Source: a virus
Lineage: Duplodnaviria > Heunggongvirae > Uroviricota > Caudoviricetes
Strand: one strand, 5' to 3'
Virus record (IMG/VR): IMGVR_UViG_2778260992_000001
Length of the DNA stretch: 64,000 bases
Part shown: positions 5,691 to 63,491 of the stretch, one piece after another
Position numbering within the stretch: the first letter of the stretch is position 1
Layout: the number at the start of each line of letters is the position of its first letter
Program-made: the position numbers and the translations under genes
The notes under the pieces: model-generated
Told to the model about the DNA's origin: nothing
Databases searched by the model: none
The model's input: only the letters and a program-made list of their open reading frames with translations

Positions 5691-5708
5691 GAAAACAACT
5701 TGTTTTGA
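5691..5708. promoter_or_regulatory. palindromic operator-like site, class 1 (AAGAAAACAAnTTGTTTT)
   Basis: gaaaacaacttgttttg located ~25 bp upstream of ATG 5730. Confidence 0.5.
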
Positions 5709-5729
5709 CAAATAATAAAAGGAAAACAC

Positions 5730-6155
5730 ATGTTAGGTTTCTTCAAAAAGAAAACTCGTAAAGCTGTTATCGAAGTCAAAAAAATGGAGAACCGTGATGC
5801 GGTTGAGGCCACCGTGTGGGGCGCGTACATGATCTCCTATGCCGACGGCACATGTGACGCAAAAGAAATTGCCATTCTTGAGAAGACAATTGCAGCTCTG
5901 CCTGCGTTTTCTCCGTTTGCTGGTGAAATTGCCCAAATGAGCGCCAATATCCGTGCTCGTTACGAAGCGTCCCCTCGTTCTGCTAATGCACAGGCTATTC
6001 GTGAGCTGTCTGATATTGCGGGTACTCCAGAGGCGGTCGATGTTCTGTGTCTGTGCCTTGATATTGCCGATCAGGACGGCATTGGTGAACAAGAAGAGCA
6101 GGCACTGAAAAAGATCGCCCAGGCGCTTCAGTTGTCACTGGATGCTTATCTCTAA
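5730..6155 (+). CDS. hypothetical protein (possible TerB-like fold)
   Basis: 141-aa ORF; weak resemblance to TerB/DjlA-N helical domains only. Confidence 0.4.
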   Translation: MLGFFKKKTRKAVIEVKKMENRDAVEATVWGAYMISYADGTCDAKEIAILEKTIAALPAFSPFAGEIAQMSANIRARYEASPRSANAQAIRELSDIAGTPEAVDVLCLCLDIADQDGIGEQEEQALKKIAQALQLSLDAYL

Positions 6156-6313
6156 TGCTTGAGAGATTCCGGCTTGTGATCGTCATTGCTCTTCTGGTGA
6201 TGGCGGTGTTGGTGGATTTTACGGGAAAGATGATGTCTGTCATTTCTGATGGCGTCCTCATTGGTTTGGCGATCTACTTCGCTTATCCGTTAGTTCGTAA
6301 AGCAAAGTGCTAA
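6155..6313 (+). CDS. hypothetical small hydrophobic protein
   Basis: 52-aa ORF overlapping upstream stop (TAATG), largely hydrophobic; below the 60-aa track cutoff. Confidence 0.3.
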   Translation: MLERFRLVIVIALLVMAVLVDFTGKMMSVISDGVLIGLAIYFAYPLVRKAKC

Positions 6314-6315
6314 TG

Positions 6316-6342
6316 ACAAGGGCCAAATGGCCCTTGTGTTTC
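6316..6342 (+). terminator. terminator-like hairpin
   Basis: acaagggccaaatggcccttgt followed by gtttcg. Confidence 0.45.
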
Positions 6343-6417
6343 GTTGACCGAAATAGAGAGTTTGCACCTTTACGTTTAGCTTGCTCCCCTTTTATGCCAC
6401 ATCACAATAAAGCCAAT

Positions 6418-6435
6418 AAGAAAACAACTTGTTTA
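6418..6435. promoter_or_regulatory. palindromic operator-like site, class 1
   Basis: aagaaaacaacttgttta ~20 bp upstream of ATG 6453. Confidence 0.5.
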
Positions 6436-6452
6436 AGCATTAGGAAAAACAC

Positions 6453-7022
6453 ATGTGCAAGAAATGCAAAGCGATAGCTGATGAACAAAACGCCTTATTC
6501 GAAGAAATGGATGCTAATGAACTGGTCAAAATGTTAGCCATTCTTCGAGGAATAGAAGACGTTTCCATATTTGAGAGAGTGGTTACAGCACTTAATTTTG
6601 AGTCCACCTTTGAAGAGCCAACTCAGGTTGTAGCTTTAGCACATCATTTCGGTGTTCATTATCTTGCTGAAAAAGAGCGCGCTGATAAGTTGCAGGCGAC
6701 TTTGGATATGGTGAGCGAGACTCAACGAACTGATGACACTAACAAGAGTGAGGCGATTATTGCCAGCAAAGATCGTGAAATTGCTGGGCTTAAATCCTCT
6801 CTAACGATGTTGATGTCTGCGTTCAATCTTATGTCTTCTCAGGCGGGTTATAAAATGCCATCACTAAACAGCGATGATCCGATGGCCGTTCGTCAGCTTT
6901 TGGGAGCAATGGCCGACCAACTCGACGACACAAAGAGTCGGCTTGAAGACATGATGCGTGAGTTAAGCCATCGACATAACCTCGCAACACAGCCACACAA
7001 AGCCTTTCAAAGCTCTAATTGA
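6453..7022 (+). CDS. hypothetical protein
   Basis: 189-aa ORF downstream of class-1 palindrome. Confidence 0.5.
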   Translation: MCKKCKAIADEQNALFEEMDANELVKMLAILRGIEDVSIFERVVTALNFESTFEEPTQVVALAHHFGVHYLAEKERADKLQATLDMVSETQRTDDTNKSEAIIASKDREIAGLKSSLTMLMSAFNLMSSQAGYKMPSLNSDDPMAVRQLLGAMADQLDDTKSRLEDMMRELSHRHNLATQPHKAFQSSN

Positions 7023-7077
7023 TCTGATATGGCCGCATGATCGGCCATATTGTGTTGATAAAAAACAAGGATGAAAA

Positions 7078-61616: not shown

Positions 61617-61617
61617 T

Positions 61618-61869
61618 ATGCTAGGCAGCCTGATGACAAAGCTAAAAGTTGCTTTGATTACGCTGGCTGCCGTTCTTTTCGTTCTGGTCGGCGCTTACAC
61701 GATGGGCGGAAATGCGGCGCGACGAGCAATGGAAGAGAAGGCAAAACAGGAAGACAGGAAACGACTTCAAAGCACAGTGGACGTCAAAAATGAAACACTT
61801 GATGAGTTACGGAGCAAGGATGCTTCTACTGTTCATCATGAGTTGCACAATAAGTGGTTGCGTGATTAA
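61618..61869 (+). CDS. i-spanin (Rz-like)
   Basis: N-terminal TM helix then charged coiled-coil region; contains overlapping +1 frame lipoprotein gene. Confidence 0.6.
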   Translation: MLGSLMTKLKVALITLAAVLFVLVGAYTMGGNAARRAMEEKAKQEDRKRLQSTVDVKNETLDELRSKDASTVHHELHNKWLRD

Positions 61870-62020
61870 GCCTCAACCCGATGGGGTGCTTTTCTGCGAT
61901 GCGGCTACACCGCTATACATCAGCCGTGATGATCTCATGACCGAAGAGACTGAAAGAGAGGTGCTTTTTCACAATATGATTGGGGAGCGATTGTGTGGAT
62001 GGGGCAGAAAAGTGCCATAA
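61790..62020 (+). CDS. o-spanin (Rz1-like lipoprotein), overlapping Rz in +1 frame
   Basis: signal peptide with lipobox ISGC, Pro-rich mature start; begins inside Rz and extends beyond it. Confidence 0.55.
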   Translation: MKHLMSYGARMLLLFIMSCTISGCVIKPQPDGVLFCDAATPLYISRDDLMTEETEREVLFHNMIGERLCGWGRKVP

Positions 62021-62194
62021 CAAAAGTGGCGTTTTCTAACATAAAATTTGCATATTATTAGAGCACAAGGTAGATTTGATGCATGGATGTCAAGTAAATC
62101 ATACCTTGTTTTAATAAATCGACGCATACTCGTAGCCTCTAAACCGACAAGGTCGCCGCTATGACATAAAGTTATTACCGGCTAAGGTGGAAAC

Positions 62195-62593
62195 ATGCAT
62201 ACTGCACTTAACGCATCTCGTTCTATTCAGACGATAAGAGACTGTACCAAGATGATCGCATCGGTTCCGTTGCGGTATTGGGATGACTCGCTCCAAATTC
62301 GTGAAATGAACAAACCAGGTATGCTTAAGGATCAGCGTTTCATCGTTAACCTTAAAAGTGACGTTGAAGAAGGCAAGTTTACCATCAAATTGTTTGCAGA
62401 AATGATGGTGCTCAACAATCGGTTACGTTTCCTTGTTAAGCCAGAAAAACAGTTTCCCGATGTTGTGCGTTGTGAACCGGATGCTTTCTATGAGATTGAA
62501 AGCAAAATAGCTAAATTTATCAAAGATAAATACCGCGTAGATGTTAAAATAGCGAAACTGGATTCACCTACGGATATGCGGCTAGCGAACTAA
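62195..62593 (+). CDS. hypothetical protein
   Basis: 132-aa ORF, RBS aaggtgga. Confidence 0.45.
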   Translation: MHTALNASRSIQTIRDCTKMIASVPLRYWDDSLQIREMNKPGMLKDQRFIVNLKSDVEEGKFTIKLFAEMMVLNNRLRFLVKPEKQFPDVVRCEPDAFYEIESKIAKFIKDKYRVDVKIAKLDSPTDMRLAN

Positions 62594-63370
62594 ATGTCAC
62601 CATCATTCATAGCAGAGTATTCAAAAGTACTGTCTGATTTCCCTGAATGTGAAACAAGAGAAAAAATCAGAGTTGGCTACATGGTTAACTCTGATTTTTC
62701 TGTTTTACGACTCACAGAATGGTCCTTGACCGGTTCTAATTATGATTACTGTTTGACAGTGTCATTTGTAGGCGACCCTGATGCAGATTGGCTTCAAGAA
62801 CATGCAATGGATCTTGACGAGCAGGGGTATTCAGAAGCAGAGATAGTTCATAGTGTTCGTGAGTTAGTTGGTGATGAGCAAGAAGATGATGACGGCATTC
62901 AGATCGCCAGGTTCGTCTACAAACGATTCCAGTTTCGCTCACAAAAAGGCTCTCATCTTGGGGTCCAGATTAAAGGGGCATTTGTAACCCCTTCAAAGGA
63001 ACAAAAGGGACTTGCTAGAAGAGTTTACAATTTCCTTCTCAATTGGCATGACCATGTGGTATGTGATGACCATCAGACGGTTTACGGTGCCAGAATTTGG
63101 GCGGTCGGTATGCTTCTGGTCGGGCGTGTCCAAATCTATGACAATTTAAACAAAGAATTTATAGATGTCCTTGTTGAAGGTGGTATTGGGCAGAATGGCG
63201 TCAAACCGTGGGACGCGCTGCTATTGAGCAGCGAGGCCCAGTTACGTCACTGGAACCCTATGGCCGTCAGCATAGACCCATCTAGTCAGATTCTCGCCAT
63301 CATCTCCAAAGAAGACCGTCACATTGAAGTGGGCGTTACAACTTTTGACGCCAGGTCTACCAACCATTAA
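62594..63370 (+). CDS. hypothetical protein
   Basis: 258-aa ORF; terminator downstream. Confidence 0.5.
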   Translation: MSPSFIAEYSKVLSDFPECETREKIRVGYMVNSDFSVLRLTEWSLTGSNYDYCLTVSFVGDPDADWLQEHAMDLDEQGYSEAEIVHSVRELVGDEQEDDDGIQIARFVYKRFQFRSQKGSHLGVQIKGAFVTPSKEQKGLARRVYNFLLNWHDHVVCDDHQTVYGARIWAVGMLLVGRVQIYDNLNKEFIDVLVEGGIGQNGVKPWDALLLSSEAQLRHWNPMAVSIDPSSQILAIISKEDRHIEVGVTTFDARSTNH

Positions 63371-63375
63371 TTCCT

Positions 63376-63398
63376 AAACCCGCTTCGGCGGGTTTTTG
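63376..63398 (+). terminator. rho-independent terminator
   Basis: aaacccgcttcggcgggttt + ttg. Confidence 0.6.
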
Positions 63399-63473
63399 AT
63401 GTTTCAGTTTCTTTATCAACCTACTAATTAACCTTTACACCGCAGCCGTAGGCATTTAGGCTATATCACATAT

Positions 63474-63491
63474 AAGAAAACAAGTTGTTTC
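63474..63491. promoter_or_regulatory. palindromic operator-like site, class 1, upstream of parA
   Basis: aagaaaacaagttgtttc. Confidence 0.5.

Follow-up and report, generated by a model that had tools for sequence, protein, structure and literature searches.

A conserved palindrome dispersed over the promoters of SSU5-like phage-plasmids: a probable repressor operator with a candidate partition-linked regulator

Several mobile elements hold many of their promoters under one dispersed operator. In the omega system of pSM19035 and other inc18 plasmids, a small ribbon-helix-helix (RHH) protein encoded together with a small Walker-type ParA (delta) binds arrays of 7-10 heptads at three promoters, its 7-bp subsites being readable in inverted orientation, and both autoregulates partition and represses other promoters of the element. 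Autoregulation of parA by the adaptor of a type-Ib system is established for ParG, omega, and pB171 ParB. KorB of the IncP plasmid RK2, a large helix-turn-helix (HTH) CTPase of the ParB family that acts at a distance together with KorA, has its palindromic operator scattered at a dozen or more promoters, with some copies centred near -39/-40. Phage-plasmid N15 carries four single palindromes of its type-Ia SopAB system dispersed in phage gene regions, where SopB is able to influence expression. In phage P1 and mycobacteriophage L5, one immunity repressor (C1, with more than 14 dispersed operators, and gp71, with its stoperators) keeps operons scattered through a large temperate phage genome silent, among them a helicase gene and the control of late genes, by way of asymmetric operators. 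Here we describe a global operator regulon of this known general kind (KorB, omega, N15 SopB, P1 C1) in a new type of element and with a new protein family, its regulator being a candidate reached by inference. The regulon was recognized in the IMG/VR virus record IMGVR_UViG_2778260992_000001, a 64-kb stretch (hereafter the window) that megablast identified as part of an SSU5/pHCM2-like phage-plasmid. Its basis is a 15-bp palindrome, designated class 1, which is real, strongly conserved and functionally positioned.

The closest complete plasmid is Escherichia coli pRHB13-C13_2 (CP057834.1; 108,954 bp), with 99.5% identity to the window, and Escherichia phage Cyrano of strain LF82 is ~97% identical to it. 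SSU5/pHCM2-like phage-plasmids are a common group: tblastn with marker proteins detected them in about 800 PLSDB plasmids from Klebsiella, E. coli, Enterobacter, and Salmonella, plus Y. pestis pMT1. Carriage of resistance genes has reportedly been described for them, while our search of the searchable literature returned no description of their gene regulation, whether of a motif or of a regulon.

Sequences matching AAAACAAnTTGTTTT / AAAACAANTTGTTTT with no more than one mismatch occurred nine times in the window, against 0.05 expected from 100 shuffles. All 12 full copies listed in an earlier sequence-only reading of this DNA were found at, or within 3 nt of, the positions given there, and a position weight matrix (PWM) built from them detected 14 window sites at a threshold of at least 16 bits. 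Thirteen of these are clearly intergenic; the remaining one (20988-21002; 17.9 bits), which that reading had missed, lies in an unannotated stretch overlapping a mechanical open reading frame. The half-sites proposed at 10967/11011 and 20779 were partly borne out: true half-sites (AGAAAACAA) are present at 11011-11019 and 20780-20788, whereas 10962-10976 is a weak full site. The distance from the end of the palindrome to the start codon ranged from 10 to 63 nt across the window sites, close to the 12-65 bp reported earlier. With the threshold lowered to at least 12 bits, the whole of CP057834.1 gave 21 matches vs. 1.6 in shuffled sequence, adding four strong or moderate sites outside the window, before genes for a DnaB-like helicase, cobT, nrdB, and a DUF7238 protein. 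Scanning of the full element and its relatives showed that the sites recur in CP057834.1, SSU5, and Klebsiella and Cronobacter plasmids. A similar density in host DNA was not seen, the threshold of 16 bits being reached nowhere in 50 kb of the E. coli K-12 chromosome. In pMT1, the 32 kb of non-phage DNA (about a third of that plasmid) had no match even at 12 bits. The sites of the window, all of them putative operators placed relative to predicted promoters, and the parA gene are as follows.

5692..5706 (+): class-1 site in orientation A, before a TerB/TciA-like gene (5730); perfect match, 24.9 bits
6421..6435 (+): class-1 site, A, before a 189-aa gene (6453); one mismatch, 23.4 bits; orthologous SSU5 site at 81751
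10962..10976 (-): weak class-1 site, B, 16 bits, directly after a terminator hairpin; centre at about -38 of the promoter of an HD-domain gene (11031); paired with the half-site at 11011-11019, the same arrangement occurring in SSU5 at 85608
19324..19338 (-): class-1 site, B, perfect match; overlaps the -35 region of the promoter of gene 19402; 51 bp centre to centre from the next site
19375..19389 (+): class-1 site, A, 12 nt after TGAGATAAT, before a DUF5983 gene (19402)
20988..21002 (-): class-1 site, B, in an A/C-rich repetitive stretch; orthologous sites in SSU5 (90746) and Klebsiella (29843)
22169..22183 (+): class-1 site, A, after TGCGATAAT, before gene 22198; orthologues in SSU5 (92175) and Klebsiella (31023)
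22653..22667 (+): class-1 site, A, after TGGTATTAT, before gene 22678; orthologues in SSU5 (92765) and Klebsiella (31608)
23556..23570 (-): class-1 site, B, between a terminator hairpin and TGTGAAAAT; next gene 23587/23629
24306..24320 (+): class-1 site, A, after TGCGATAAT, before gene 24333
24791..24805 (+): class-1 site, A, with promoter TTGACG, 15 nt, GATAAT; before gene 24825
33906..33920 and 33931..33945 (+): pair of class-1 sites, spacing 25 bp, in the terS (33985) leader and preceded by a CTAATT -10-like box; pair kept in SSU5 and pMT1, single site in Klebsiella
63477..63491 (+): class-1 site, A, centre at about +15 of the parA promoter (TTTACA, 17 nt, TAGGCT)
63526..64000 (+): parA, truncated at the window end; its product is a small Walker-type ATPase for partition (222 aa)

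Alignment of 51 sites from three genomes revealed that the extended consensus is asymmetric (AG-AAAACAA-n-TTGTTTA) and is used in two orientations; in the form of a 30-bp duplex, the class-1 operator reads AAGAAAACAAGTTGTTTA. In class A (35 of 51 sites, ~70%) the palindrome follows a -10-like hexamer, typically TGnGATAAT, and the distance from the end of the hexamer to the palindrome was 10-13 nt (mode 12) for 22 of the 24 sites scored, a further 11 being without a hexamer. TG-extended -10 boxes are frequent here, and many of these promoters also have a -35 box of the TTGACG/TTTACG type. If transcription starts 7 nt past the hexamer, a class A palindrome would occupy positions from about +7 to +21, with its centre near +14. 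In class B (14 sites) the motif stands in reverse orientation, TAAACAAnTTGTTTTCTGCCTT. A terminator hairpin usually lies immediately upstream of it and an extended -10 box follows after 18-19 nt, which puts its centre near -38, overlapping the -35 region. Joint occurrence of A and B came with a spacing of exactly 51 bp, whether in the E. coli element, SSU5, Klebsiella, or pMT1. Relative to the predicted starts, the site thus lies at a fixed distance on the core promoter or the initial transcribed region of sigma-70-type promoters. These promoters were not called by a generic promoter scan, because GATAAT combined with a weak -35 box falls below its rule. The longer flanks reported to be shared by several copies were confirmed and correspond to TGnGATAAT-N12-palindrome, i.e., the -10 box and initial transcribed region, and to TTGTTTTCTGCCTT in the inverted class. 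On the other hand, the earlier picture of a simple symmetric palindrome placed by the start codon did not hold: the distance to the start codon varies, while that to the -10 box is fixed, which ties the site to the promoter (+14 or -38) and not to the ribosome-binding site. The genes fronted are also not confined to the early and accessory genes and parA named in that reading. These are indeed fronted, but so are the helicase, cobT, and nrdB promoters outside the window and, by the pair at 33906-33945, terS, with which the late packaging and structural operon begins.

RNA structure at the sites was weak, with minimum free energies of -1.8 to -6.1 kcal/mol and z-scores of -0.7 to +0.15 vs. shuffled sequence, thus short of a stable RNA element; no Rfam search was part of this analysis. 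The weak hairpin, together with class B copies lying upstream of promoters and hence untranscribed, indicates that the class-1 element acts at the DNA level. Repressors are known to act at sites near +14 or overlapping the -35 region, and it is probable that the class-1 motif is a repressor operator, whichever protein binds it.

Conservation of the motif is pronounced. SSU5 has 21 sites and the Klebsiella relative 19, in both cases at the orthologous terS, parA, helicase, cobT, nrdB, and small-gene promoters, and megablast aligned the Klebsiella relative with only 7% of a 6-kb test segment. For 12 orthologous sites compared in three genomes, identity reached 91.7% at the 14 core positions, 25% at the central base, 69.6% in the upstream flank, and 58.1% in the downstream flank. 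A conserved core with a free central base pair is the pattern typical of a protein-binding site. The motif is also kept in a second Klebsiella lineage, a Cronobacter plasmid, and divergent metagenomic contigs of ~110 kb. Scanning of IMG/VR for AAGAAAACAANTTGTTT returned at least 120 stretches; among the matches listed, multi-site loci were all SSU5-like, the divergent ~110-kb lineages included, single-site loci look like chance occurrences, and no second element family using the motif was found. In the Enterobacteriaceae lineages a class-1 site fronts 16-21 promoters, whereas plasmids of Moellerella and Pectobacterium have the sequence only at parA, as a half-site, and none at terS, helicase, or nrdB. 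The simplest reading of this difference is that the regulon expanded from an autoregulatory site.

To relate the sites to expression in the plasmid state, we used per-gene values for Cyrano from RNA sequencing of the LF82 lysogen (median 9.8; PMC9928086, S1 table). Most of the fronted genes were at background level: terS 7.1, the tciA-like gene 7.0, CYRAN_87 7.1, CYRAN_101 7.5, cobT 7.8, CYRAN_105 12.8, CYRAN_106 12.2, CYRAN_108 5.7, CYRAN_110 6.7, and nrdB 12.9 (PMC9928086). CYRAN_111 (25.5) and the helicase gene (21) were slightly above it, and the sole clearly expressed fronted operon was that of parA, with values of 50 for parA, 89 for the gene directly after it, and 55 for the third gene (PMC9928086). 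These promoters look sigma-70-competent, and their silence in the plasmid state suggests control by a repressor that is present in the lysogen.

The best candidate for this repressor is the product of the gene directly after parA, which lies ~0.2 kb past the window end. The 222-aa ParA itself matches CbiA, MipZ, and AAA_31, along with NCBIfam ParA_partition, the last match spanning residues 9-213 and scoring 115.7 bits, less than the equivalog cut-off (180); as a small Walker-type ATPase devoid of an N-terminal DNA-binding domain, it fits type Ib. Its partner, 117-119 aa long, is 91-93% identical across three genomes, above the conservation of ParA, and is expressed in the lysogen. It carries a conserved MGDLAKR sequence at its N-terminal tail, residues 1-47 being disordered and followed by helices in an AlphaFold 2 (AF2) model, and shows a beta-helix-helix sequence pattern, KIKSRTMSLEDEY...TRSDVIRAAI. 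The family had 20 representatives among 1.84 billion proteins, and in nine of the nine lineages whose context was examined the gene directly follows that of a 221-230-aa ParA. P0171 matches RHH_1 at E 0.005, the E. coli member itself has a weak match to aCcr1 (RHH), and a distant profile match, P0181, passes the Pfam cut-offs of RHH_8 and RHH_1, yet it is not encoded beside parA and may be unrelated. The homologue in Cyrano, CYRAN_29, is annotated as a 'RelE/ParE putative toxin' and was given as a moron toxin in PMC9928086. No RelE/ParE signature was found in it (no Pfam match at E 0.01), which, together with the sequence pattern and the parA context, indicates that this annotation is probably wrong and points to a partition adaptor.

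What links the RHH candidate with the motif is the parA promoter. ATAAGAAAACA is the only invariant block in the parA promoters of six lineages and the sole conserved non-promoter element upstream of the gene. Lineages with the beta-strand I[KR]SRT[MVIF]S keep a class-1 sequence at parA, the half-site of Moellerella and Pectobacterium included, whereas two lineages with the beta-strand I[KQ]GRMVS have none there, one of them having a TTGTATAA-N5-TTATACAA palindrome instead. We therefore favour, with moderate confidence, the RHH partner of the type-Ib ParA as the reader of class 1. The central proposal of a single dimeric regulator made earlier is supported, in that one sequence-specific binder, probably a dimer or a dimer of dimers, would coordinate many promoters, and of the two options offered, a maintenance repressor or a partition-linked autoregulator, our evidence points to the latter. 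The statement that no such regulator is identified in the window is only partly right: the best candidate indeed lies outside, but two conserved small DNA-binding proteins are encoded inside it and are considered below.

In the mechanism we propose, the class-1 palindrome would serve as a DNA operator in sigma-70-type promoters of SSU5-like phage-plasmids. A protein bound at about +7 to +21 would block promoter escape, one bound near -38 would overlap the -35 region, and at some promoters the two classes bracket the promoter. The RHH partner would autoregulate parA through the operator at about +15, and the same operator would have spread to the 16-21 promoters of the Enterobacteriaceae lineages, i.e., those of small accessory genes, the DnaB-like helicase, cobT/dnaE, and nrdB, and the late terS leader, so that the partition adaptor would act as a global silencer in the plasmid state. 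No repeat (iteron-like) array was found near par, which implies that the dispersed class-1 sites may double as partition sites. Taken to its full extent, the divergent RHH adaptor would be a master silencer whose ~20 dispersed palindromes both segregate the plasmid and hold early, replication, and late promoters off, mechanically coupling maintenance to the lysis-lysogeny state, in a regulon that spread from the parA operator; we offer this extension tentatively, as a possibility. If true, plasmid and phage control logic would be fused in one protein, and the regulon would be an example of growth from one autoregulatory site. With a defined operator, a short candidate list, and a predicted geometry, the lysogeny and maintenance circuit becomes directly testable.

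A number of observations weigh against the RHH protein as reader. The E. coli member has no Pfam match and no profile or sequence match in PDB, its AF2 monomer is poor (predicted template modelling score 0.40) and gave no fold match in a structure search, and hhalign found no similarity to a ParG sequence. Type-Ib centromere-binding proteins normally occupy arrays, and one two-heptad site per locus is an unusual arrangement for them. Since the lineages with the changed beta-strand show general divergence, phylogenetic distance confounds the co-variation; inside the Enterobacteriaceae lineages, where the motif is conserved along with the reading heads of all three candidates, it carries no information. 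SSU5 grows lytically although it encodes the RHH protein, and repression by a partition protein would have to be lifted on (SOS) induction; Cyrano is induced 39-fold by ciprofloxacin. The lysogen data come from one strain and two replicates at low read depth. Finally, pMT1 keeps seven class-1 sites even though its ParA/RHH pair is lost. The flanks in pMT1 are near-identical to those of SSU5, leaving little time for decay, and as a natural RHH knock-out this plasmid thus says little.

The two proteins encoded inside the window are the following.

33523..33789 (+): 88-aa MarR-like winged-helix protein, identified by AF2 and Foldseek
28693..28971 (-): 92-aa RHH-like protein, expressed in the lysogen

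The 88-aa protein could be imagined to read class 1 in a lytic-cycle role, e.g., in early-promoter shut-off or late-operon gating. It has a MarR/MepR-like winged helix-turn-helix fold (AF2 predicted local distance difference test 79.5; Foldseek template modelling scores of 0.72-0.78 at probability 1.00 to MepR, MarR, and AdcR), though it is much shorter than MarR (~140 aa) and in this recalls mini winged-helix proteins, SSV1 F-93 for instance; a MarR-type dimer would suit a 15-bp palindrome. Its gene stands immediately upstream of the double terS site, is 75-100% identical at the protein level in about 800 plasmids and co-distributed with the motif, and is retained by pMT1 along with class-1 sites. 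However, it is unexpressed in the lysogen (7.8, background 9.8), a state in which the fronted promoters are off and parA seems partly active. Its recognition helix TTKQSMQFSIRALI is also unchanged in the deep-branching Moellerella and Pectobacterium plasmids with no class-1 site at terS, helicase, and nrdB. In these plasmids, the terS and helicase operons have another conserved motif, in the places of the class-2 repeat described below, and this motif is a better candidate target. We consider it unlikely as the class-1 reader, and it is more probably linked to class 2. A similar weighing applies to the 92-aa RHH-like protein, co-transcribed with a UvsW-like helicase. Its lysogen value was 114, twelvefold the background; its sequence pattern is RHH-like, and it is kept in all lineages, pMT1 included. 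Yet its predicted DNA-facing strand varies (TTYCQVAL, AIHCQVQL, SISCQVKL, KVVQFRAT) under an identical motif, and its own operon is devoid of a class-1 site, the divergent promoter having another palindrome, TAAGTAAGTGATTACTTA; we find its role as reader hard to credit.

Binding by a conserved protein of the Enterobacteriaceae host, a nucleoid-associated or global regulator exploited for silencing, would explain the invariance of the motif over element lineages with 20-50% divergence elsewhere, its absence from relatives in other host families (Morganellaceae and Pectobacteriaceae), and the class-1 sites that pMT1 has without the RHH protein. To our knowledge, no E. coli regulator has the class-1 consensus, and the lack of matches of at least 16 bits in the 50-kb K-12 segment likewise argues against a host factor. 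Moellerella and Pectobacterium conserve a half-site at parA, and in similar SSU5-like contexts the motif disappears together with a change of the RHH beta-strand; both observations point to an element-encoded reader, and we regard a host protein as rather improbable. A duplicated promoter cassette, or an RNA element of the 5' untranslated region acting on mRNA stability or translation, would dispense with a dedicated regulator altogether. Several copies do share a flank of 25-30 nt, and those of class A would be transcribed into the leader. Against this, the core is far more conserved than the flanks and its central base is free, as in protein-DNA recognition, class B copies are inverted and upstream of promoters, the hairpins are no stabler than shuffled sequence, and the spacing is fixed to the -10 box rather than to the start codon, so that we give this explanation very little credence. 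A cI-like HTH repressor encoded outside the window (the CYRAN_45 homologue) was rejected as binder, its own region having no class-1 site but GGTAAGTGCTTACC-type palindromes, and its gene being missing in SSU5 with its 21 class-1 sites. The 'LexA-like' protein at 15522-15911 has an S24 domain only, is HumD/UmuD'-like, lies behind a LexA box, and is no DNA binder.

With the RHH partner of ParA as the favoured reader, the locus can be set against the known systems. It resembles omega in the putative small RHH protein encoded with a small Walker-type ParA, in 7-bp subsites readable in inverted orientation (AAAACAA / TTGTTTT), and in the proposed double role in partition autoregulation and repression of other promoters of the element, although no sequence homology of the candidate to omega or ParG was detected. 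In contrast to the omega arrays, one two-heptad palindrome is present at each of ~16-21 promoters, at +14 or -38, and the targets include phage replication and packaging genes. The class B sites recall the KorB operators centred near -39/-40, and the candidate would likewise be a partition protein with a palindrome scattered over a dozen or more promoters; it differs from KorB in being a small RHH protein, with most sites downstream of the -10 box. The single dispersed palindromes in phage gene regions are shared with N15, where four sites and a type-Ia system stand against ~20 sites, a type-Ib system, and a putative partition role. Silencing of many scattered operons, with a helicase gene and late-gene control among them, would be shared with P1 C1 and L5 gp71, yet here the immunity-type cI-like repressor has other putative operators (GGTAAGTGCTTACC) and its absence from SSU5 leaves the class-1 regulon in place.

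Further regulatory elements were noted. The class-2 element is an inverted repeat of ~55 bp with arms ATATATAC(G/A)GAAGCAGG, the arm reading ATATATACGGAAGCAGG, and an AT-rich centre, present at 33814-33868 and 3231-3283 of the window and, as a third copy, at 31256-31310 of CP057834.1. It lies ~25 nt after the preceding stop codon, upstream of terS, of the CYRAN_80/81 genes, and of the CYRAN_31-helicase operon, and SSU5 and Klebsiella have kept it at all three positions. At these places, the Moellerella and Pectobacterium plasmids have TATAAATACTATGGGAGC(T/A)(A/C)GGC in at least six copies, often as inverted pairs. Class 2 could be a middle or late promoter or an activator site, and a candidate target of the 88-aa MarR-like protein; its GGGAG core loosely recalls promoters of single-subunit RNA polymerases, although none is annotated. 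A conserved GC hairpin with a T-run (33949-33975; GAGCGCatggacGCGCTCtgtgtgtttt) separates the terS operators from the ribosome-binding site of that gene; its stem is kept and its loop varies in SSU5 and Klebsiella. It has the appearance of a terminator or attenuator in the leader, and antitermination would then take part in late-gene control.

Upstream of the 88-aa gene and directly 5' of the packaging genes, a single operon (30598-33513) encodes two paralogous proteins with a ParB_N domain followed by two ATP-binding cassette (ABC)-type ATPases; it is silent in the lysogen and kept in all relatives, pMT1 included. The palindrome TAAGTAAGTGATTACTTA is found at 30583-30600, within the 65 bp of divergent promoter DNA that separate the UvsW-like helicase operon from the operon running from the ParB-like genes to the winged-helix gene. 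It resembles the GGTAAGTGCTTACC of the cI-like repressor's own region in CP057834 and is probably the operator through which that repressor would keep the ParB-like operon off.

According to the Cyrano and CP057834 annotations, the window begins with nucleotide-metabolism genes, followed by small accessory genes and a minus-strand cargo island, and continues with the ParB-like/ABC-ATPase operon, the terminase-tail-lysis late operon, and a toxin-antitoxin pair before it ends inside parA. A gap of ~800 bp without an annotated gene (14721-15521) precedes the S24-only gene, which has a perfect LexA box, CTGTATGCATATACAG, at 15488-15503, 19 nt upstream, and is highly expressed in the LF82 lysogen (148; PMC9928086, S1 table). 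The A/C-rich, internally repetitive stretch at 20650-21600, unannotated in the closest plasmid, contains a 31-nt and a 29-nt repeat in three copies each, a 22-nt repeat ATAA(G/C)AAAACAACTAAATAACA in two, and class-1 half-sites AGAAAACAAC at 20780 and 21471; it could be a gene for a repetitive protein or a cluster of regulator half-sites. Within the low-GC minus-strand island, the 'transcriptional regulator' at 27673-28275 (-) resembles FljA, the phase-1 flagellin repressor (Pfam Flag1_repress, E 2.5e-84); it is cargo and no candidate for the class-1 reader. It is found also in SSU5 and pMT1 and could enable the element to silence host fliC.

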